This document shows positions 3,501-45,233 of a DNA stretch of 64,000 bases, one piece after another. The notes beneath the pieces were generated by a model. It did no database searches. It worked only from the letters and a program-made list of their open reading frames with translations, and was not told where the DNA came from. Positions within the stretch are counted from its first letter, which is position 1, and each line of letters starts with the position of its first letter. The stretch covers positions 92,658 through 156,657 of the forward strand of contig JAQUXC010000001.1 in NCBI GenBank assembly GCA_028692545.1, read 5' to 3'. The translations under genes and the position numbers were made by a program. Source of the DNA: Patescibacteria group bacterium (GTDB lineage: Bacteria; Patescibacteriota; Patescibacteriia; UBA1558; S5-K13).

Positions 3501-5260
3501 TTATGCAAGTAGATTACAATGATAAAATTTTTAATAAAATACAAGAATTATCTTCTATAACAAAAGATAAGCTTGAGTTTTTGAAAAAAAAGTTAGTTGA
3601 AGAAAATCAAAATATAGATAGTATTATAAAAAAATATTATTTGATAGATTTGGAAAATTATGCACAAATAAAAGCTACTGTTATAGGTATGCCTTATAAA
3701 AATTTATTAGATGAAAAGGTAAATGCTGAAGCTTTAAAACTATTACCAATAAATCTTTCTGCTAATTATAAAATGGTTATTTTTAACAAGAGAGACAAGG
3801 TATTGGATGTAGGATTAGTTGATCCTGAGGATTTTAGCGCAATAGAAGCAGTAGAATTTTTAGCACACAAAAATAATTATAAATTAAAATATTATCTTAT
3901 TTCAGAAGAAAGTTTTAATTCTGTATTCAAAAAAACTGAAAATATTAAACAACAAGTAAACGAAGCTTTGGATTATGCAAAAGAAGAATTTGAAGAAATT
4001 GTAGATGAGTCTCAGTTTGATGAAGAAAATTTAGGTGACATTATCAAAACAGCTCCTGTTACAAAAATTATATCTGTGCTTTTAAAACATGCTGTAGAGG
4101 GAAGAGCTTCTGATATACATATTGAACCAGTATCTGAAAAATCAATTATAAGATTTAGAATAGATGGGAAATTACACAATTCAATAGTTTTACCAATTTA
4201 CATACACAATGCACTTATAGCAAGAGTAAAGGTAATGGCTAATATGAAAATAGATGAAACTAGAATTCCTCAAGATGGAAGAATCAGAGTTGCAATGAAA
4301 AGAGGTAAAGATGTAAAAAAAATAGATTTTAGAGTATCTACATTGCCACTTATAGACTACGAGAAAGTAGTTATGAGAATTTTGAGTACTCCAGAAAAAG
4401 TTCCAGAATTTGAGGAATTGGGATTCTTTGGAAATTCAAAAAGAATGATAGAAGAAGCTATCAGCAAACCAAATGGTATGATTTTGGTAACAGGACCTAC
4501 TGGTAGTGGTAAATCTTTTACATTATTTACTGCTCTAAATAAGATTAATTCTGAGTTAATAAATATTTGTACATTAGAAGATCCAGTTGAGTATAATATT
4601 AAAGGAATCAATCAATCACAAGTAAGGCCAGAGGTAAATTATACTTTTGCATCAGGTCTTAGGTCTCTACTTAGACAAGATCCAGATGTTATAATGGTGG
4701 GAGAAATTAGAGATAGTGAAACAGCAAAACTTGCTGTGCATGCTGCCCTTACTGGTCATTTGGTTTTTTCAACGCTTCATACAAATGATGCAATAGGTGC
4801 AATACCGAGACTTATTGATATGAAAATAGAACCATTTCTTTTGTCATCTACCTTGAATTTAGTTTTTGCACAGAGGCTAGTAAGAAGAATTTGTGATAAT
4901 TGTAAAGAAGAAATGATCCTTTCTGATATATTAAAAGAACAAATATCATCCTCTATTAATGATTTACCTGAGTCTGCTTTTTATGGTAATGTTAAGAAAG
5001 GAGATGTTATAAAATTCTACCATGGTAAGGGTTGTAATCGTTGTGGTGGAACTGGGTATAAAGGCAGAATAGCTATAAATGAAGTTTTTGTACCAAATAG
5101 AGCCTTGAAAGATGTTATCAATGATGGTAATGACATGGGAAAATTTCAAGATGAATTAAAAAAACAAGGATATATAAATATGATGCAAGATGGTCTTATA
5201 AAAGTTTTAAGTGGTATGACGACGTTGGAAGAAGTTTTGCGAGCTACAAAAGAATTTTAA
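3497..5260 (+). CDS. pilB: type IV pilus extension ATPase PilB/GspE family
   Basis: It has the Walker A GPTGSGKS, the Walker B DPDVIMVGEIRD, the His box LVFSTLHTNDA and a C-terminal tetracysteine (CDNC...CNRC) characteristic of PilB/GspE. Confidence 0.85.
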   Translation: MIMQVDYNDKIFNKIQELSSITKDKLEFLKKKLVEENQNIDSIIKKYYLIDLENYAQIKATVIGMPYKNLLDEKVNAEALKLLPINLSANYKMVIFNKRDKVLDVGLVDPEDFSAIEAVEFLAHKNNYKLKYYLISEESFNSVFKKTENIKQQVNEALDYAKEEFEEIVDESQFDEENLGDIIKTAPVTKIISVLLKHAVEGRASDIHIEPVSEKSIIRFRIDGKLHNSIVLPIYIHNALIARVKVMANMKIDETRIPQDGRIRVAMKRGKDVKKIDFRVSTLPLIDYEKVVMRILSTPEKVPEFEELGFFGNSKRMIEEAISKPNGMILVTGPTGSGKSFTLFTALNKINSELINICTLEDPVEYNIKGINQSQVRPEVNYTFASGLRSLLRQDPDVIMVGEIRDSETAKLAVHAALTGHLVFSTLHTNDAIGAIPRLIDMKIEPFLLSSTLNLVFAQRLVRRICDNCKEEMILSDILKEQISSSINDLPESAFYGNVKKGDVIKFYHGKGCNRCGGTGYKGRIAINEVFVPNRALKDVINDGNDMGKFQDELKKQGYINMMQDGLIKVLSGMTTLEEVLRATKEF

Positions 5261-5275
5261 ATTTAACTAAAAAAT

Positions 5276-5653
5276 ATGTCTGATGCAAATAAAAAAATAT
5301 TAATAGCAGAAGATGATCCATTTTTATCTGGCATGTATTCAGAAAAACTTGAATTAGAGAATTTTAATGTTATATTAGCAGTTGATGGAGTTGAAGCGAT
5401 AGATAAAATGAAAATATATAAACCAGATTTAGTTTTATTAGATCTTCTTATGCCAAAGAAGGATGGTTTTGAAGTTTTAAGTGAAAAATTATTAGATGAT
5501 AGTATAAAAGATATACCAGTTATAGTCCTTACGAATTTGTCACAAAAGGAACAAATTAAAAAATGTTATGATTTAGGCGCAAAAGATTTTTTGATAAAAG
5601 CATATTTTGTACCATCTGAAGTTATTAAGAAAATAAGAACAATAATAGAATAG
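5276..5653 (+). CDS. single-domain response regulator receiver (CheY/PilH-like)
   Basis: The receiver hallmarks are intact: an EDD acid pocket, a phospho-acceptor Asp in LLDLLMP, a conserved T/S and a K in KDFLIKA. Confidence 0.7.
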   Translation: MSDANKKILIAEDDPFLSGMYSEKLELENFNVILAVDGVEAIDKMKIYKPDLVLLDLLMPKKDGFEVLSEKLLDDSIKDIPVIVLTNLSQKEQIKKCYDLGAKDFLIKAYFVPSEVIKKIRTIIE

Positions 5654-5658
5654 TTATT

Positions 5659-6717
5659 ATGCCATCAATAGATAAGTTACATTTAAATGAGCTTATAAAT
5701 CAAGCTCTAAAAGAGAATGCTATTTCTCTTTCTTTTAATATTAGTAGTTATCCTATTATGAAAATAAGAGATAATTTAAAGATATTAGAAGATGCTCCAA
5801 TTTTAACAAAAGAATTTTTGGAGACAATAATGGATTCTATTTTAAATGATACTCAAAAAGAGATTTTAAAAAAAGAAAAAGAACTTACTATGGGTTATGA
5901 TTGGTCAAATGATGTAAGATTAATAGTAAATTTTTTTTATCAGAGGGGTTCTTTGTCTATTACTATAAAAATAGTACCAGCAGTTTTTAGAGATATTACA
6001 GAATTAAATTTACCAAATGTAGTAAATGATATAGTAAAAATGAAATCAGGACTTATTATTATATGTGGACCAGTGTCATCCGGAAGAACAACTACAATTT
6101 CATCAATATTAGAATATCTTAATAAAAATACTGATAATAGAATAGTTACAATTGAATGTCCAATAGAGAGACAATTTATTAATAAAAAAAGTATTATTCA
6201 ACAAAGAGAAATTGGTAGAGATGTAGACTCTATAGCAGACGGTCTAAATGATGTAATAGATGAAGATGTAAATATTGTTTATGTCGCAAAAATTAGTTCC
6301 AAAGAAGATGTAAAAGCTATGTTGCAAGTTGCAAATTCTGGGAAATTGGTTTTTGTGATTATGGATTTGGATTCTATAGTTTCTGTTTTAAATCAGATAT
6401 ATGGTAGTTTTGAATTATCGGAAAAAGATTGGGCCAGAAGTCTTTTGGTAGAATCACTGAGAGTTATAATCAATCAGAGATTAATACCAAGATCAGGTGG
6501 TGGAGAAATTCTTGCTTCTGAAGTTTTTACTATGACATCTACAAGTTATGCTATGGTAAAATCTGGAAATTTTGATCAAATAAAATCAATAATGCAAACA
6601 TCAAGACAAGATAATATGCAAGATTTAGATACGGTTTTAAAGACAATGGTTCAAAATGGTATTATCGAATTAGAAAATGCAAAAAAATATTCAAATAATC
6701 CAGAAGTTTTTAAATAA
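5659..6717 (+). CDS. PilT-like retraction ATPase homolog with degenerate catalytic motifs
   Basis: It has the PilT/GspE fold at typical length. The Walker A reads GPVSSGRTTT (Lys replaced by Arg), the Asp box is ECPIER, and the Walker B glutamate and His box are not conserved. Confidence 0.6.
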   Translation: MPSIDKLHLNELINQALKENAISLSFNISSYPIMKIRDNLKILEDAPILTKEFLETIMDSILNDTQKEILKKEKELTMGYDWSNDVRLIVNFFYQRGSLSITIKIVPAVFRDITELNLPNVVNDIVKMKSGLIIICGPVSSGRTTTISSILEYLNKNTDNRIVTIECPIERQFINKKSIIQQREIGRDVDSIADGLNDVIDEDVNIVYVAKISSKEDVKAMLQVANSGKLVFVIMDLDSIVSVLNQIYGSFELSEKDWARSLLVESLRVIINQRLIPRSGGGEILASEVFTMTSTSYAMVKSGNFDQIKSIMQTSRQDNMQDLDTVLKTMVQNGIIELENAKKYSNNPEVFK

Positions 6718-40036: not shown

Positions 40037-41473
40037 ATGATCAAAACAAAACAATTAATCAAAATAAGTGTTCCATTTTTTATTCTAATTTTTAGCTTTT
40101 TTCTATATAATCCATCACATGCATCTATTACATATGGATCAATAGATAATACAAATAAATATGCATACAATGAAAATACTGGCTGGATAAATTTCAAAGA
40201 TGCAAATAGTGATATCTATATATCAGATACACAACTTATTGGTTATGCATATTTTGAGAATATGGGATGGATATCATTTAACTGTTCTAATACTAATACA
40301 TGTGATGACAATAATTACAAAGTATCAAATACAGAAAATGGAGTACTAGTTGGTTATGCATATAGTGAAAATGCAGGATGGATAAATTTTACTGGTGTAA
40401 CAATAAACACAAGTGGTGAATTTATTGGCTATGCATATGGAGAAAATATAGGATATATATCTATGAATTGTTCTAATACTAATACATGTGATGACAATAA
40501 TTACAAGGTATCAACAGATTGGATTCCAAAATCAGCAAGACCATCATCTGGTTCAACAGGTGGAGGATGGACTGGTTCTACAATAGTTACACCACCAACT
40601 ATACCAACATATTCTACAACTGTTACACCAGCAAATGGTGGAACACTTAATTATACATTTACTGATAATTCAAATATTAATATTGTAGTACCAGCTAATA
40701 CTGTAACATCTAATACCACTATTACTGTAAGCGAAGGGTCATTAAGTACTGATAATACACCAAATAGTAGTACTGGTGCATTTATGATTGGTAATAGTAT
40801 ATTTAATATATCAGCAATAGATATTAATAATAATTCTATTACATCATTTACTAATAATCTAACCATTACAATTACAATACCAAGTCTTCCAGATAATACA
40901 TCTAATCTAGGAGTATATTATTATGATACAACACTTGATAGCTGGATATTAGTAGAAAATGCCGTATTTGATATAACTTTAAACAAAGTAACATTCAATG
41001 TAAATCATCTAACCATATTTGCAATATTTAATATAGCAGGAGTACCATCTACTATTAATACAACAAATGATGAAAGTAGTATTCCACAATCATTCTGGAC
41101 TACAGGTAAGTGGATAAAAACAGAGGATAGATCTACAGTATATTTTGTAGATAGTAATAATGATAGACATGCATATCCAAATGAAAAGATATGGTATTCA
41201 TACTTTGATAATGATTTTTCATTTGTTTCTACAATAACAAAAGAAGAACTAGCTACTTATACACTAGGAAAGAATGTTCCATATAATACTGGTATACTAT
41301 TTAAAATACCAACAGTAGCTAAAGTATATCTAGTAGGAGTAAATGGACTTATACAATGGATAAAGACAGAAGAAAAAGCAATAGAACTATATGGAGCTAA
41401 TTGGAATAAGTTAGTTCATGATTTACCAGATGAATTCTTTGGGGATTATACGGAAACAACATCAATAGAATAA
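40037..41473 (+). CDS. secreted repeat-containing surface protein (internal tandem duplication of about 64 aa)
   Basis: It has a signal peptide. The block GYAY..NMGWISFNCSNTNTCDDNNYKVS occurs twice, and the nucleotides at 40285-40330 repeat at 40477-40520. Confidence 0.45.
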   Translation: MIKTKQLIKISVPFFILIFSFFLYNPSHASITYGSIDNTNKYAYNENTGWINFKDANSDIYISDTQLIGYAYFENMGWISFNCSNTNTCDDNNYKVSNTENGVLVGYAYSENAGWINFTGVTINTSGEFIGYAYGENIGYISMNCSNTNTCDDNNYKVSTDWIPKSARPSSGSTGGGWTGSTIVTPPTIPTYSTTVTPANGGTLNYTFTDNSNINIVVPANTVTSNTTITVSEGSLSTDNTPNSSTGAFMIGNSIFNISAIDINNNSITSFTNNLTITITIPSLPDNTSNLGVYYYDTTLDSWILVENAVFDITLNKVTFNVNHLTIFAIFNIAGVPSTINTTNDESSIPQSFWTTGKWIKTEDRSTVYFVDSNNDRHAYPNEKIWYSYFDNDFSFVSTITKEELATYTLGKNVPYNTGILFKIPTVAKVYLVGVNGLIQWIKTEEKAIELYGANWNKLVHDLPDEFFGDYTETTSIE

Positions 41474-41534
41474 ATGTATAATTGAGTAATAGGGTAATAG
41501 TATAATTGATAATTTTAAATAAATAACTTAATAA

Positions 41535-41603
41535 CTAGAGAGTTAGTAAGTTAGAGGGTTAGGAATTTATCTGACTCACTAACACTCTAACCTTCTAACC
41601 AAC
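41535..41603. repeat. foldback element built from GTTAG-octamer repeats (3 direct units, loop, 3 inverted units); family shared with 59177-59262
   Basis: The left arm agttagtaagttagagggttagg pairs with the inverted right arm cactaacactctaaccttctaacc. Confidence 0.5.
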
Positions 41604-41611
41604 TAAAAAAT

Positions 41612-42676
41612 ATGAAAACAAAAAACATCTTAAAAAACATTTCATTTGCAGTACTAGTAATACTTATTACATTTAGTATTACAAAGGCAGGAGATCTATT
41701 TCCGAGTGGTACAAGTATATTACCAACATTCTATACACTAGGAGATATATACGACAAATTAACAGACAATACAACATCCGCAGATGAAGGAGATCATGAT
41801 CTTACATCATCAGCCACACCAGCATCTACATTTCATACACTAAAAGATATATATGAAGCAATACCAACTATTGATGCAGATAAAATGCTTACAACAGCTG
41901 ACTATATGGGTGTACAAGGAACAATAGTAAGTATAGGTGCAGTAACAATAACACCAAGTACAACAGCTCAAACAATCATAGCTGGATATCATAATGGAAG
42001 TGGAACTGTTTCTGGTGACACAGATCTAATATCATCAAATATCCTATCAGGAGTAAATATATTTGGAGTAAGTGGTTCTGCTGTATCAGGTGCTGATTTA
42101 TCAAATATGTTCAATGGTAGTCTTACTCCATATGAGGGTAGCGGAGATCATCCAGGTGGAGCAACATCAACAGGTGGAGTAGATGATTATAATAATAGTG
42201 ATAATCCACCAGCAGATAGGTATGAGGTAGAGTGGATACAGTGTACACTAGGTAATAATTATTGTGGTACAGGAGATAACTTTGCACAAGCAAAGGACAA
42301 TAATACCAACCTTATATGGGCACTTCCATGTGCAGGGGCAGGGTGTTCATCAAACAGCACTACAACACAAAATTATTATACTTGGGATGGTAGCGATGGT
42401 TGGGATGTAAGTAATAATGGAATGACAGCTCAACAATTATGTTCAAGTTTGGGATCAGGCTGGTATCTTCCTCATCAGAAACAGCTTATGCAAGCATACA
42501 TAGATGGTTCTTATGGTAATCTTGAATTTCCCGGTACCTATGACTATTACTGGTCTGCTACTACGGTATCAGATGCTCCTGGTATTGCGTGGATCGTCCT
42601 TTTGTCTAACGGGTACACGACCAACTACGTTAAGTTTGTGACCTACAGAGTCCGTTGTGTTCGTTTGGCAAACTAG
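41612..42676 (+). CDS. DGR target protein: secreted protein with C-terminal variable region (C-type lectin-like fold expected)
   Basis: It has a signal peptide. The C-terminal 44 codons (42531-42663) are the variable repeat matching the template repeat. Confidence 0.8.
   Translation: MKTKNILKNISFAVLVILITFSITKAGDLFPSGTSILPTFYTLGDIYDKLTDNTTSADEGDHDLTSSATPASTFHTLKDIYEAIPTIDADKMLTTADYMGVQGTIVSIGAVTITPSTTAQTIIAGYHNGSGTVSGDTDLISSNILSGVNIFGVSGSAVSGADLSNMFNGSLTPYEGSGDHPGGATSTGGVDDYNNSDNPPADRYEVEWIQCTLGNNYCGTGDNFAQAKDNNTNLIWALPCAGAGCSSNSTTTQNYYTWDGSDGWDVSNNGMTAQQLCSSLGSGWYLPHQKQLMQAYIDGSYGNLEFPGTYDYYWSATTVSDAPGIAWIVLLSNGYTTNYVKFVTYRVRCVRLAN
42531..42663 (+). repeat. DGR variable repeat (VR)
   Basis: It aligns over 133 bp to 43288-43420. 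I count roughly 19 mismatches, all at positions where the template repeat has A. The 3' 20 nt are identical (IMH-like). Confidence 0.85.
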
Positions 42677-42722
42677 AATTTGATTATTTGATGATTTGGA
42701 TTATTTGATTATTTATTTATTT

Positions 42723-42747
42723 CCCCCCACCATTTTATGGTGGGGGG
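42723..42747 (+). promoter_or_regulatory. GC-rich perfect hairpin (11-bp stem ccccccaccat/atggtgggggg) downstream of VR
   Basis: It lies about 60 nt downstream of the VR end and is unusually GC-rich in this genome. It is analogous to the hairpin/cruciform that stimulates DGR homing in Bordetella phage BPP-1. Confidence 0.6.
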
Positions 42748-42762
42748 AAAAATTTAAATTTT

Positions 42763-43125
42763 ATGGCTCAATATGATCATTTACAGATTTTTAGATCTTC
42801 ATACAAATTAACTCTTGAAATTTATAAAGCATCACACAATTTTCCAAGAGAATACAAGTATACATTAGGTCAAAAGTTAAAAGATTTTTCATCAGATTTT
42901 ATAAATTTAATAATTCTAGCAAATTCTCAGAAAGAAAAATCCAAGACCCTAGAAGATGCAAGATTAAAATTAGAACAATTAAAAATTCACATTAGGCTAT
43001 CATCTGATTTAAAAATTTTAGGAATAAATAGGTTTGAGTTGTTTGCTGTATCTATTGAAGAAATATCAAAACAACTTTCTGGTTGGTATGATTGGTCATC
43101 TCAGCACACAATGGAACAAAAATAA
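42763..43125 (+). CDS. avd: Avd-like DGR accessory variability determinant (four-helix-bundle, 23S rRNA intervening-sequence protein family)
   Basis: It is 120 aa and lies between the target gene and the TR. The motif KYTLGQKLKDFS resembles the S23-IVS/Avd signature. Confidence 0.6.
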   Translation: MAQYDHLQIFRSSYKLTLEIYKASHNFPREYKYTLGQKLKDFSSDFINLIILANSQKEKSKTLEDARLKLEQLKIHIRLSSDLKILGINRFELFAVSIEEISKQLSGWYDWSSQHTMEQK

Positions 43126-43287
43126 AAAATATAAAAAGAGCCAGAATTTTAAATACTCGCGGGTATTAAAATAGGGCTTTCATTGCGATCTCATTCGGTT
43201 GAATTTCAACCATTATTTACAAAAATTTGTACTTTCCTTTGGAAAGATAAAGTTTTGGTGTTTTTAAAGTGATGAGATATTAATTTT

Positions 43288-43420
43288 CCGGTACAAATGA
43301 CAATTACTGGTCTGCTACTACGATATCAGATGATCCTGGTAATGCGTGGAACGTCAATTTGTCAAACGGGAACACGAACAACAACGATAAGAATGAAACC
43401 AACAGAGTCCGTTGTGTTCG
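43288..43420 (+). repeat. DGR template repeat (TR)
   Basis: It is the A-rich copy of the VR, non-coding, and abuts the RT gene stop. Confidence 0.85.
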
Positions 43421-43434
43421 TCTGGAAATGAATA

Positions 43435-44685
43435 TTATCTTTTTTTCTTGGCTCTTTTTATATTTTTTAAAAAATCCTTTTTTATTTTAAAAGAATAAAA
43501 ATTGGTATCCTTATTTTCTATATAATTTTTTATATACAAAAATCTGTTTTCGTATAGATTTTTTCTAAGATTATATGTATTTGCATGTCTAAAATGTCCA
43601 TAATATGAATTTATTGTTGCAAGTATTTTATTTATTGTTTTTATATCTGGATATTTTTTGAAATTGTATAATTCCATTTGAGAATTTTGTTTATATCCAA
43701 ATTCTTCTAAAATTTTATTGAAATTATTTAATTTTCTTTTTAAGTTATTTACAACTCTACGCCTTGATAAAATATAATCATTTTTTATTATATAACCAAG
43801 CCAATTTATTCCATTATTTGTACTTTGTAAAATTTGTTTTTTGGGATTAAGCTCTAAGGCCAATTTGTATTTTAAAAATTGTGATATTTCATTTCTACAA
43901 TAAATAAGTTCATTTTTATCTTTAGATAAAATAACAAAATCATCAACATACCGCATATAATATTTTGCTTTTAATTTGTGTTTTACGAATTGGTCCAGTT
44001 CGTTTAGATAAACATTTGCAAAAAATTGAGATGTCAAATTGCCTATTGGAAGTCCTTGAGTATTTGGTAGATAAAAAAGTGATTTGTGTTTTGGAATTAG
44101 TTGAAATAAACCTTTATCTCCTTTTTTGTGAAAGTTTTGAAGTGGATCGCAGAATATTATTTGTTTTGTAAGCCATAAAATTTTTTCATTTTTTAAATTT
44201 TTTGAAATAATTTCAAATAGTATTTTTTTGTTTATGTTCATAAAAAATCCTTTTATATCTAAATGAATGAAAAAAGCTTCGTTCTTATAATTTCTTGTAA
44301 TTTGCCTTATAAATTTGTTTAGGTATTTTATAGATTTGTGAGCACCTTTTTCTTTTCTATTTGAATATGAATGAAATATAAATTTTTTTTCAAAAATTGG
44401 TTCAAGAAAATTATATAACAAATGATGAATTACTCTATCTCTAAAATCAGAGGCAAAAATTTCTCTAAGCATTGGCTCTTTTATTACAAAACATATAAAT
44501 CTACTTGGTGTATATTTTTGATTATTTAATTCATTTTTTAGTTTTAAAATCTCTGACTCTAAATTTATTTCAAATTTTATTGCATTTTTTGTATTTATTT
44601 TGTTTTTACGACAATCAAGATATGCTTTATAAATATTCCGAAAGGTGAATAATTGTTTCAATTCATTTTTATTATTGACTAGCAT
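43435..44685 (-). CDS. DGR-type reverse transcriptase
   Basis: RT motifs are present: FRDRVIHHLL (domain 1/2), GLPIGNLTSQ (the domain 4 SQ signature typical of DGR RTs rather than SP) and RYVDDFVIL (YxDD). Confidence 0.8.
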   Translation of the reverse strand: MLVNNKNELKQLFTFRNIYKAYLDCRKNKINTKNAIKFEINLESEILKLKNELNNQKYTPSRFICFVIKEPMLREIFASDFRDRVIHHLLYNFLEPIFEKKFIFHSYSNRKEKGAHKSIKYLNKFIRQITRNYKNEAFFIHLDIKGFFMNINKKILFEIISKNLKNEKILWLTKQIIFCDPLQNFHKKGDKGLFQLIPKHKSLFYLPNTQGLPIGNLTSQFFANVYLNELDQFVKHKLKAKYYMRYVDDFVILSKDKNELIYCRNEISQFLKYKLALELNPKKQILQSTNNGINWLGYIIKNDYILSRRRVVNNLKRKLNNFNKILEEFGYKQNSQMELYNFKKYPDIKTINKILATINSYYGHFRHANTYNLRKNLYENRFLYIKNYIENKDTNFYSFKIKKDFLKNIKRAKKKR

Positions 44686-44813
44686 AATGATTTGTATTAC
44701 ATAATTTATATTATAAAATTACATTTGTTTATTGACTAATCGTACAACTTATGATATCCTTTTTTAATATTACGGGAAAATTTTATTTTATTAATTTTTA
44801 ATTTGTAAAAATA

Positions 44814-45233
44814 ATGCCAACAATAAATCAATTGGTCAAAAAACCAAGAAGAGATAAAACTAGAAAAGCAAAGTCTGCAGCTTTGAAAGTTACTCATAAT
44901 ACTTTGAAAAGAACAAAGCATATAGATAAAGTAGGTTCTTCTTTTAAAAGAGGTGTTTGCGTAAAAGTTACTACAACTACTCCAAAAAAACCAAATTCAG
45001 CTCTTAGAAAAATTGCAAGAGTTAGACTTTCTAATGGTCAAGAAGTAACTGCATATATTCCAGGTATGGGACATAATTTGCAAGAGCATTCAGTTGTTAT
45101 GATAAGAGGCGGAAGAGTAAAGGATTTACCAGGAGTTGCTTACCATATAGTCAGAGGTGTTTTTGACACTCAGGGTGTAGAAAATAGAAAGCAAGGTCGT
45201 TCACTTTACGGAGTAAAAAAACCAAAAAAATAA
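44814..45233 (+). CDS. rpsL: 30S ribosomal protein S12
   Basis: The N-terminus [13 protein letters not shown] matches S12 and the conserved core is present. Confidence 0.9.

Follow-up and report, generated by a model that had tools for sequence, protein, structure and literature searches.

Diversity-generating retroelements (DGRs) of CPR and DPANN organisms have reportedly been catalogued by Paul et al. in 2017. The sole structural model of DGR reverse transcription is that of one phage, Bordetella BPP-1, whose element has the order mtd-avd-TR-Sp-brt and whose bRT-Avd-RNA complex has been described by cryo-EM (PDB 8ub7 series; 10.1101/2023.10.23.563531); in this model the control RNA lies entirely after the template. 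In the classification of Wu et al. 2018 (PMC5758913), architecture B3, TR-(avd)-RT, is typical of the 'CPR set', and the DGR of Legionella pneumophila and DGRs with CLec2/DUF1566 targets are placed in category 'd'.

We describe here a DGR encoded in a 64-kb stretch of DNA from a Patescibacteria group bacterium, referred to as the window. The element is chromosomal, lies just upstream of rpsL-rpsG-fusA and belongs to a genome of 28% G+C. The best explanation of the locus, to which we give a probability of about 90%, is a chromosomal DGR that diversifies a secreted Lcl_C/DUF1566 protein, putatively by a leader-based mechanism. As a DGR it is nothing out of the ordinary within its known class; it is the layout of its template RNA that is unusual with respect to the textbook Bordetella element. 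All three of its ORFs are intact:

41612-42676, plus strand: target gene, 354 aa; hydrophobic N-terminus (signal or anchor), Lcl_C/DUF1566 domain at the C-terminus
42763-43125, plus strand: avd (accessory variability determinant), 120 aa
43435-44685, minus strand: DGR reverse transcriptase (RT), 416 aa, convergent with target-avd-TR

The RT has the motifs LPIGNLTSQFFANVYL (LPIGNLTSQ) and RYVDDF (YVDD), and its catalytic motifs are intact. The best match among solved structures is the Bordetella bRT (PDB 8ub7, E=3.2e-35), followed at 2.6e-16 by the next match; group II and retron-type RTs are found at 3e-16 or weaker, about 20 orders behind bRT. The protein is further assigned to RVT_1 in Pfam (4e-20) and to PHROG 1423 (5e-108), and its phage homologues are DGR RTs, those of Bordetella phages among them. 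More than 7000 homologues are obtained at E<=1e-40, of which the named ones come from CPR MAGs and carry names such as Nomurabacteria, Moranbacteria, Doudnabacteria, Portnoybacteria, Paceibacterota and Saccharibacteria. Some names point elsewhere: the top NCBIfam match by name is group_II_RT_mat (TIGR04416, 128.8 bits), weaker ones are to retron St85 (NF038233, 61.9 bits), Drt3a and AbiA, and several homologues bear the source name 'retron-type reverse transcriptase', as would be expected of a group II intron, retron or defence RT lying near a direct repeat by chance. These scores, however, are far under the respective cutoffs (300, 235, 200 and 250), and neither a group II intron RNA nor a retron RNA is present in the Rfam scans. 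Together with bRT as the best structural relative, the adjacent avd, the adenine-only mismatches given below and the recurrence of the identical gene set in every relative inspected, this effectively refutes such an identity, which we regard as extremely improbable. Judged by its motifs and best matches, the RT is assigned to the DGR clade and the element is a genuine DGR.

The 120-aa product of the gene between target and TR matches bAvd in Pfam (2.2e-18, 67.2 bits, cutoff 40) and PHROG 3206, 'Avd protein of DGR' (6e-20); it also matches the NCBIfam equivalog DivGenRetAVD (NF033474) at 1.4e-19 with 70.3 bits, under the cutoff of 80. The initial annotation had proposed a DGR-type RT, an Avd-like gene and a complete DGR, and with RT, Avd, TR, VR and target each found and independently supported, all three proposals are upheld; the ORFs that it named are likewise present as described. 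Its view of the convergent RT as an uncommon arrangement has to be given up, the same layout being common to 11 of the 11 closest distinct relatives inspected; TR and RT on different strands have already been recorded (Wu et al. 2018, PMC5758913).

Residues 228-351 of the target are assigned to Lcl_C in Pfam (PF07603, E=1e-10, 42.3 bits against a gathering cutoff of 34.9), a domain which spans the VR and is conserved in the relatives. Comparison of a profile of the target C-terminus with the PDB returns only 8q4e, a marginal match (E=0.002), and the single-sequence AlphaFold2 model, with a pLDDT of 37, is too low for reading a CLec fold. The hydrophobic N-terminus and the domain match agree with the secreted target bearing the VR at its C-terminus that had been suggested earlier. 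Going by these features of the sequence, the protein whose tip this DGR rewrites is secreted and lectin-like. The repeats concerned are as follows:

42531-42664, plus strand: VR, the last 45 or so codons of the target gene
43288-43421, plus strand: TR, intergenic and non-coding, with 45 A in 134 nt
42645-42664, plus strand: IMH-like block, 20 nt identical in VR and TR, followed by partial and then by complete divergence

Offset by 757 nt, VR and TR form an ungapped alignment of 134 nt. The pair had been given before as 133 bp (42531-42663 and 43288-43420); the pair itself stands, and its measured extent reaches 42664 and 43421. Tabulation by TR base places all 19 mismatches, about as many as had been counted before, at TR adenines (A to T 13, A to C 4, A to G 2), for which the hypergeometric P is 4e-11 with 45 A in the 134-nt TR. 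A repeat search gives a wider homology of 85% identity between 42525-42671 and 43282-43428. The identical 3' end noticed earlier is likewise seen: CAGAGTCCGTTGTGTTCGT and one further base are the same in both copies, beyond which there is T/C at 42665, C/A at 42669 and unrelated sequence past 42671, the VR-specific and TR-specific flanks each being conserved in the relatives. In the target frame 16 codons differ between VR and TR, 14 of them non-synonymously, and these are mostly AAY (Asn) in the TR; the 26 variable TR codons allow about 10^23 possible protein variants. A second VR is absent from the 64-kb window.

The closest comparison is with a MAG locus, L001, whose RT gene is 94.1% identical and of which another locus, L011, is an identical copy. 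Identity to this locus is 75.2% in the VR, 89% in the rest of the target gene, 92.5% in the TR and 97.5% in the leader described below, which is above that of the RT gene. The two VRs differ at 21 positions; 19 of these are A in both TRs (P=8e-9), and at the remaining two the TRs are themselves unlike, and each VR has the base of its own TR. A block in the middle of the repeats is lineage-specific in TR and VR alike. Since the VR differences either lie at TR adenines or track the own TR, the comparison of the two sequences means that directional TR-to-VR transfer with A-mutagenesis has in all probability operated after the lineages split. The DGR is apparently recently active, and the earlier wording 'probably active' is supported to this extent.

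A decaying or presently silent DGR, in which the TR/VR pattern is a fossil of past activity, could be suspected from a non-A mismatch at the edge of the repeats (TR C43422 against VR T42665), where the TR of the window alone has C, and from locus L007, whose RT is split into two overlapping ORFs and which indicates that members of the clade do decay. The mismatch shows either that the VR has been incompletely overwritten since the TR mutated or that the position is outside the transferred segment. The intact target, avd and RT with its catalytic motifs, the leader that is more conserved than the RT gene and the VRs of two lineages with RTs 94% identical, each rewritten from its own TR, argue against decay here, and we consider it quite improbable.

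Two further features follow the VR:

42677-42722, plus strand: TTTGAT-like array with an 8-9-nt period, directly 3' of the VR and the stop codon
42720-42750, plus strand: GC-rich hairpin with an 11-bp core, 14 bp in all and a 3-nt loop, between target and avd

The units of the array start at 42679, 42687, 42695 and 42704, and this is the sole 46-nt stretch of the window with at least four TTTG[AG][AT] (expected 0.19). A TTTGAT-like array follows the VR in all relatives; over 46 loci the lag-8 autocorrelation of the VR flank is 0.46 against 0.25, and the 8-nt periodicity is absent 3' of the TR. The array may be a recipient-site signal of this RT lineage. The hairpin, reported previously with 11 bp, is present with core arms CCCCCCACCAT and ATGGTGGGGGG at 42723-42733 and 42737-42747. 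It is kept in L001 with one compensatory change (ACCAT/ATGGT to ACTAT/ATAGT) and is missing from relatives more distant than L001, and is therefore not a conserved part of the DGR lineage.

The region between avd and TR is predicted to form a structured RNA, enclosed by a long-range helix, P1:

43145-43287, plus strand: structured leader RNA, about 143 nt, between avd and TR
43147-43157 with 43162-43171, plus strand: leader hairpin H1, tetraloop CGCG
43179-43184, plus strand: primer-like UUCAUU of the leader, followed by GCG at 43185-43187
43188-43195 with 43271-43278, plus strand: leader helix P3
43197-43202 with 43206-43211, plus strand: leader helix P3a
43222-43229 with 43249-43256 and 43232-43237 with 43241-43246, plus strand: leader helix P4
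43123-43144, plus strand: P1 5' arm, overlapping the avd stop codon and pairing with 43448-43469
43448-43469, plus strand: P1 3' arm, antisense within the last codons of the RT gene
43427-43432, plus strand: AAUGAA on the 3' border of the TR homology, complement of UUCAUU at 43179-43184; candidate template:primer strand, P5

RNAalifold gives 39 pairs for the leader, 29 with compensatory changes, and among 27 distinct sequences 95% of the cells are paired against 63% after shuffling, with double changes in 35 of 36 pairs, counts that are inflated by an alignment fitted to the structure through the covariance model and by the phylogenetic relatedness of the sequences. The leader covariance model, R1, scores 122-177 bits in the relatives. 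The leader matches no family in the Rfam scans, and in the DGR literature searched no mention was found of the leader RNA, of P1 or of the repeats flanking the VR.

P1 is a perfect 21-nt inverted repeat with one additional G.U pair, which makes a helix of about 22 bp around leader and TR, its 5' arm being 143 nt away from the TR. Ten relatives have a similar helix of about 22 bp at the equivalent place; positions 7-21 of it covary, and its G.U pairs are found only in the TR-sense strand. Nine of 10 convergent relatives can form P5 with 6-7 bp. One of its positions covaries (U-A to C-G), and four of the six pairs are invariant across the convergent group; its 6 bp in the window, as in any single sequence, are not above chance. 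It is found in at least three sequence versions, co-oriented relatives included, and always at the 3' edge of the TR. The leader strand of P5 is always followed by G, and the opposite base is G in most relatives and A (43426) here.

A non-coding spacer of about 140 nt 3' of the TR, as in Bordetella, has no room in this locus, where TR end and RT stop codon are separated by 13 nt. Most convergent relatives have values of -26 to +13 nt for this gap. Of 75 viral relatives, 70 have the TR directly next to the RT start, with an Avd-sized ORF that ends before the TR at a median distance of 166 nt. The spacer equivalent could still be RNA 3' of the TR, made up of the antisense of the RT 3' end here and of the RT 5' coding region in co-oriented relatives, with leader and P1 serving as the 3' UTR of avd, a terminator or a regulatory structure. 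Every cis element of the Bordetella paradigm is 3' of the TR, 207 of 278 surveyed DGRs have stem-loops just 3' of the TR (Handa et al., 10.1101/2023.10.23.563531), and the region beyond P1 is conserved among the relatives, though it is also coding. Against this, unrelated insertions of 260-350 nt in two relatives (L024 and L007) part the P1 3' arm from the RT and leave the distance between arm and TR unchanged, and the module of leader and TR is constant whether the RT gene is co-oriented or convergent. The 3' strand of P3 moreover stops 4-9 nt short of the TR, the place at which one would look for a stop duplex, and the TR 3' edge can pair with the leader segment beside P3, a complementarity that recurs in several sequence versions. 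We regard this reading, with an untranslated or regulatory leader and a spacer equivalent lying 3' of the TR, as unlikely.

In the leader-based mechanism that we favour, a plus-strand transcript comprising the avd 3' end, the leader, the TR and about 50 nt more would fold such that P1 closes the RNA and the leader forms H1, P3 and P4. The leader would be bound by RT-Avd, and cDNA would be primed in cis at UUCAUU-G (43179-43185) paired with AAUGAA at the TR 3' edge. Synthesis would cross the TR with misincorporation opposite A and halt at P3, and the A-mutagenised cDNA would replace the VR, flagged as recipient by its own 3' flank, namely the IMH-like block, the 8-nt array and here also the GC hairpin. 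In this way the ligand-binding tip of the protein could take up to about 10^23 forms. The RT gene would tolerate either orientation because all cis elements are then 5' of the TR or within about 50 nt 3' of it.

The order of elements in the leader mirrors that of the Bordetella Sp. Both appear to share, in sequence, a hairpin with a UNCG-type tetraloop, about 13 nt, a primer-like strand, G-C, a duplex strand, a small hairpin, a single strand and a long hairpin, and this analogy is the ground on which H1, P3 and P4 may be given roles in Avd binding, stopping and RT binding, their shapes and their order being alike. The likeness suggests that the RNA of this DGR could be a circular permutation of the Bordetella RNA, with the RNA that recruits RT-Avd and primes synthesis placed 5' of the template and with an extra helix of about 22 bp. 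We put this forward tentatively, at less than even odds; if true, it would account for the TR abutting the RT gene and for the invertible RT gene. That the permutation extends to a large RT lineage, on CPR chromosomes and in many DGRs of IMG/VR viral contigs, is a conjecture of comparable reserve.

The locus adds one more well-documented, apparently recently active DGR in a reduced genome with a secreted lectin-like target, and fits the idea that hypermutation keeps such organisms abreast of changing partners or surfaces; a CPR origin and a role in episymbiosis are suggested by the record names of the relatives. The DGR itself would be of modest interest, and its RNA layout a testable lead. 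About 70 related elements inspected resemble the present one in leaving no space behind the template, and a structured RNA supported by covariation precedes it. If the leader is the equivalent of the spacer, surveys and engineering that consider only what follows the TR would overlook the control RNA of a large share of natural DGRs. A naturally permuted RNA, if it is one, would allow testing which spatial relationships of primer, stop duplex and protein-binding hairpin are essential, and compact RNA designs for DGR-based mutagenesis tools might become possible.

Compared with known systems, the element shares with Bordetella BPP-1 the RT clade (E=3e-35) with the motifs IGxxxSQ and YxDD, Avd, a TR of 134 nt, adenine-specific differences, a VR at the 3' end of a target with a putative C-type-lectin fold, a stretch without changes where the repeats end on their 3' side and a predicted pairing of the avd 3' end with RNA beyond the TR, which here is P1. 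It differs in that the 140-nt spacer between TR and RT is replaced by structured RNA 5' of the TR, in the gap between avd and TR. The cPRT Stop duplex of Bordetella joins sequences upstream and downstream of the TR. P1 would fit this definition but is 143 nt away from the TR; P3 would fit by position but has both strands upstream, and this stop-like helix is a local one around the putative RT-binding domain. A template:primer-like duplex runs from the leader to the TR 3' edge, there is the additional 22-bp closing helix, and the RT, on the opposite strand and with a C-terminal extension of about 90 aa, overlaps the 3' arm of the RNA. The element is on a cellular chromosome and not in a phage, and its target is Lcl_C/DUF1566 and not Mtd.

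With the CPR DGRs of Paul et al. and the 'CPR set' of Wu et al. it has in common a small AT-rich genome, CPR-named RT relatives, a cassette containing Avd, components on both strands and a secreted target; the order is target-avd-TR-(RT) as against TR-(avd)-RT in the latter. The Legionella pneumophila DGR is similar in its Avd-TR-RT core and in a VR that falls within a C-terminal domain of the DUF1566/Lcl_C type, the protein being a secreted or surface one; it differs in being co-oriented and on a proteobacterial genomic island, with only a distant sequence relationship to the target of the window. The co-oriented DGRs of IMG/VR viral contigs (loci L029-L108, RT identity 36-52%) also have an Avd ORF followed by a structured leader of about 130-180 nt and then the TR, and the CPR-type leader covariance model matches 9-12 of these loci; they have an AUCUG:CAGAU duplex at the TR 3' edge and the 8-nt periodicity in the VR flank. 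Their targets and leader sequences are different, and their RT gene begins, in the orientation of the TR, where the TR ends; the RT gene described here has its own end at this point and lies on the opposite strand.

The diversity-generating retroelement (DGR) encoded in the window is comprised of the following features.

41612-42676, forward strand: target gene
42531-42664, forward strand: VR, within the target gene
42677-42722, forward strand: array of 8-nt period, with TTTGAT/ATTTAR-like units immediately 3' of VR
42720-42750: GC-rich hairpin between target and avd
42763-43125, forward strand: avd
43123-43144 paired with 43448-43469: helix P1, enclosing leader and TR
43145-43287, forward strand: leader
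43288-43421, forward strand: TR
43435-44685, reverse strand: reverse transcriptase (RT)

All the ORFs and motifs reported in the initial annotation have been found in the window. VR and TR align without gaps over 134 nt at an offset of 757 nt, with a weak extension of the homology to 42525-42671 and 43282-43428. The earlier claim that every mismatch lies at a TR adenine is borne out by pairwise alignment and tabulation by TR base, which place 19 of 19 mismatches at A (13 A to T, 4 A to C and 2 A to G). The hypergeometric probability of all mismatches falling on A, which occupies 45 of the 134 TR positions, is 4e-11. The final 20 nt of the two copies are identical and divergence is seen beyond them. 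AAY codons are abundant in TR when read in the target frame, 14 of the 16 altered codons are non-synonymous and about 10^23 protein variants are encodable by TR across 26 variable codons. A scan of both strands of the window with TR, treating A as a wildcard, has revealed no second VR besides the known pair. TR has C at position 43422, which is T in its own VR (42665) and in both TR and VR of L001, the locus with the most similar RT described below. This C is either a recent TR mutation yet uncopied into VR or a site beyond the transferred segment.

The best match of the RT among solved structures is the Bordetella DGR RT (bRT, PDB 8ub7; 3.2e-35), in an alignment containing IPIGSLTSQLFANVY of the window RT against LPIGNLTSQFFANVY of bRT, and group II and 'retron-type' RTs match at 1e-16 or weaker. 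The scores with the NCBIfam models of group II, retron, Drt3a and AbiA are far under the cutoffs, and PHROG 1423 is matched at 5e-108. Homologues of the RT number more than 7000 at E<=1e-40, the named ones being from CPR MAGs. RT homologues are also on record for phages, among them those of Bordetella, and for the archaeal virus ANMV-1. The 120-aa ORF has been assigned to Avd (Pfam bAvd, 2e-18; PHROG 'Avd protein of DGR', 6e-20) with a score slightly under the NCBIfam equivalog cutoff, and has no match in a PDB sequence search. Enrichment of DGRs in CPR genomes is known, and DUF1566 targets as well as split-strand cassettes have been described previously. The target of the window is hydrophobic at its N-terminus, and its C-terminus carries an Lcl_C/DUF1566 domain scoring over the Pfam gathering score, a class that includes the CLec2-type DGR targets (Wu et al. 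2018, PMC5758913). A PDB sequence search with the full-length target gave noise only, a profile of its C-terminus gave one marginal match, and an AlphaFold2 model of the C-terminal 170 residues, made from the single sequence with no alignment, was discarded at a pLDDT of 37. Judged by every feature that is testable in sequence, the element has the characters of a DGR and lacks those of group II introns and retrons.

L001 is a contig from a genome collection, identical to the metagenome contig L011, which encodes an RT 94% identical to that of the window in the same neighbourhood adjoining fusA.

Identity between the window and L001, by segment
avd: 97.0%
avd-TR intergenic region: 97.5%
RT: 94.1%
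TR: 92.5%
target upstream of VR: 88.7%
VR: 75.2%

The two VRs differ at 21 of 121 cleanly alignable positions, and 19 of these differences are found where A stands in both TRs. At the other two (43409 and 43415) the TRs differ as well and each VR carries the base of its own TR (P=8e-9). A block in the middle of TR is specific to each lineage, and each VR mirrors the version of its own TR. On these alignments the pattern is that left by TR-to-VR transfer and mutagenesis of adenines since the two lineages split, and the description of the element as probably active is in keeping with this between-lineage change of VR. The VR of L001 also has a 3-nt insertion with respect to its own TR (AACAAGGATGAC against AACACTGAC; about 620-645 and 1385-1405 of the reverse complement), which is unusual for a DGR pair.

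The convergent orientation of the RT had been regarded as uncommon, a view that does not hold among the closest loci inspected, namely L018 (RT identity 83%), L019-L027 (55-60%), L007 (48%) and L002 (52%). In all of them, as in the window, the RT is convergent to target, avd and TR, which share a strand, and therefore this layout is the rule in the clade; their TR/VR pairs are A-biased throughout. The occurrence of TR and RT on different strands has been noted before (Wu et al. 2018, PMC5758913). The distance from the TR 3' end to the RT stop codon is -26 to +13 nt in most of the convergent relatives and 100-381 nt in L019, L024 and L007. Among related viral DGRs (IMG/VR contigs L029-L108; RT identity 36-52%), TR abuts the RT start codon in 70 of 75, and the end of an Avd-sized ORF precedes TR by a median of 166 nt. 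The common layout of the viral sample is thus avd-leader-TR-RT and not the avd-TR-spacer-RT of Bordetella.

L007 (4596-4650, 7252-7305 and 7995-8047) and L024 (about 2145-2260 and 2663-2758 of the reverse complement) have palindromic, MITE-like repeats, about 50 nt in length, inserted between DGR parts. Some relatives have extra ORFs between the parts, which include a 253-aa ORF of unknown family, GIY-YIG and AbiEii/DUF6922. The module of leader, TR and 3' arm is undisturbed by such insertions. In L007, of Paceibacterota, the RT (5016-6138) is split into two overlapping ORFs by a frameshift or an assembly error, and the TR/VR pair is still A-biased. In the window the target is adjoined upstream by a gene (40037-41473, forward strand) for a 478-aa product, hydrophobic at its N-terminus and containing four GYAYxENxGWIxF-type repeats, for which no Pfam or NCBIfam match was found. 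The DGR directly adjoins the str ribosomal-protein operon, a neighbourhood shared by L001; the RT start and rpsL diverge from an intergenic region of 128 nt (44686-44813), and a sigma-70-like match, TAGTCA-17-TATAAT, lies upstream of the RT (44738-44710, reverse strand).

An array of 8-nt period follows VR in all the 46 loci compared and is missing 3' of TR. Besides the window, it is seen after VR in L007, L018-L027, L029-L036, L046 and 29 further viral loci. The lag-8 autocorrelation is 0.46 after VR against about 0.25 in TR flanks and random segments, 8 being the best lag in 29 of the 46. In the window it has four TTTGAT-like units (42679-42712), the sole such cluster in the 64 kb. The array remains beside VR even where other genes intervene between target and avd, and we suggest that it may be a recipient-site signal of this DGR lineage. 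The GC-rich hairpin pointed out earlier after VR is indeed present and is conserved in L001 with a compensatory change. It is gone in more distant relatives, being found in the window and L001 only, and is thereby ruled out as a conserved homing element of the lineage. Its score is terminator-like, and hence termination of the target transcript may be all that it does.

The adenine specificity identifies the forward strand as the template strand. TR ends only 13 nt from the RT stop codon, and the 140-nt spacer (Sp) that lies 3' of TR in the DGR of Bordetella phage BPP-1 therefore has no possible counterpart between TR and RT. TR and leader are enclosed by P1, a perfect 21-nt inverted repeat with one additional G.U pair, whose 5' arm overlaps the avd stop codon and whose 3' arm lies within the last codons of RT. 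A helix of about 22 bp has been identified at the same position in all 10 relatives examined. Its inner core, GAGCCAG/CUGGCUC, is conserved, and at each of positions 7-21 three or four pair types occur. Its G.U wobble pairs, 14 or more, are all in the TR-sense strand. A reading of P1 as terminal inverted repeats bounding a mobile cassette is ruled out by the retention of pairing and not of sequence between relatives and by the restriction of G.U to the TR-sense strand. In L036, a co-oriented viral locus, the closing helix has about 16 bp (2227-2243 with 2502-2518) and the RT start codon lies in its 3' arm, so that folding of the template RNA could occlude RT translation.

The 143-nt leader is alignable across the relatives, and of the 39 pairs in its RNAalifold prediction 29 show compensatory changes. 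Nine leaders were used to build a covariance model, which scores 122-177 bits in all the convergent relatives other than L007 (59) and L002 (47), and also matches a set of co-oriented IMG/VR loci at 14-55 bits. In these a TR follows the RNA directly and abuts the RT start codon. An nhmmer search with the leader profile retrieved close relatives only, and L007, L002 and the co-oriented loci needed the covariance model. Over 27 distinct sequences 95% of the cells are paired, against 63% when shuffled and 53% or less with slid partners, and 35 of 36 pairs have two-sided changes, figures that are generous, given the fitting of this alignment to the model and the relatedness of its sequences. A separate alignment of 29 viral relatives has its own conserved leader fold of the same outline. 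These comparisons show that the leader, P1 and the leader helix P3 exist, are conserved and covary. Searches of Rfam (evalue mode over 41000-45200, gathering mode over the whole window) assigned neither the leader nor the TR flank nor the hairpin to a family, the only gathering-level matches in the window being two tRNAs elsewhere.

The control elements could instead be located 3' of TR, an arrangement against which two observations argue. Unrelated insertions in L024 and L007 part the 3' arm of P1 from the RT gene and leave the distance between arm and TR unchanged, and the leader-TR module is the same for either orientation of the RT gene.

The leader also contains a candidate primer. In 9 of 10 convergent relatives its segment UYCAUU has a complement, AAUGRA, where the TR homology ends on the 3' side, and one position of the duplex covaries. 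At the same place of the leader L012 has AUCAUU:AAUGAU, the co-oriented L036 has UAUCCU:AGGAUA, and 24 of 29 viral loci have AUCUG:CAGAU, extending to 9 bp, with one compensatory variant. Within any single sequence the 6-bp duplex is no better than chance. The next leader base is G in every group, facing a template G in most relatives and A43426 in the window. A co-oriented 'CACUGG' subgroup (L029, L031, L033, L034 and L046; leader with UCACUGG-GC-P3) has a duplex of 4 bp only with the TR flank, CUGG:CCAG, and its leader segment is a better match to the VR 3' junction (CCAG/UGA, including the target stop codon), to which it is complementary over 6-9 nt. A different candidate primer duplex of 10 bp, 43106-43115 with 43408-43417, has been ruled out, the avd-terminal sequence being unconserved in L018 and other relatives.

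In the Bordetella RNA, the avd 3'-end strand and TR are followed by a UNCG-tetraloop hairpin that binds Avd, a primer strand complementary to the end of TR on the 3' side and terminating in the priming A56, G57-C58, a strand pairing with avd (the cPRT Stop duplex), a small hairpin and adenosines after it, a single-stranded 'thumb ring' and a long RT-binding hairpin (Handa et al., 10.1101/2023.10.23.563531). The leader has H1 (a hairpin of 10 bp capped by a YNMG/UNCG tetraloop), 7-18 unpaired nt, UYCAUU, GCG, the 5' strand of the 8-bp P3, the small hairpin P3a, a conserved single strand, the long bipartite hairpin P4 (often UUCG-capped), a further single strand and, on the 3' side, the second strand of P3, whose end lies 4-9 nt upstream of TR. 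On account of the parallels in element order, in complementarity to the TR edge and in the next G, we infer that the leader is the counterpart of Sp joined to the 5' side of TR, and that the DGR RNA would correspond to the Bordetella RNA circularly permuted, a closing helix being added. A forward-strand RNA spanning 43123-43469 would then be bound by RT-Avd at H1 and P4, priming would occur at 43184/43185 opposite 43426/43425, cDNA synthesis would halt at P3 and integration would be directed by the VR flank. The searchable literature, whose coverage is incomplete, has yielded no description of a spacer-equivalent located upstream of TR, of permutation in a DGR RNA or of repeats in the VR flank; the probability that the RNA layout is both correct and previously undescribed is put at about one third. 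The Bordetella phage DGR is the only mechanistically characterised DGR, and the RNA layout proposed here differs from it. The leader G that faces a template G after the primer-like segment resembles G57 of the Bordetella Sp facing G117 of TR.
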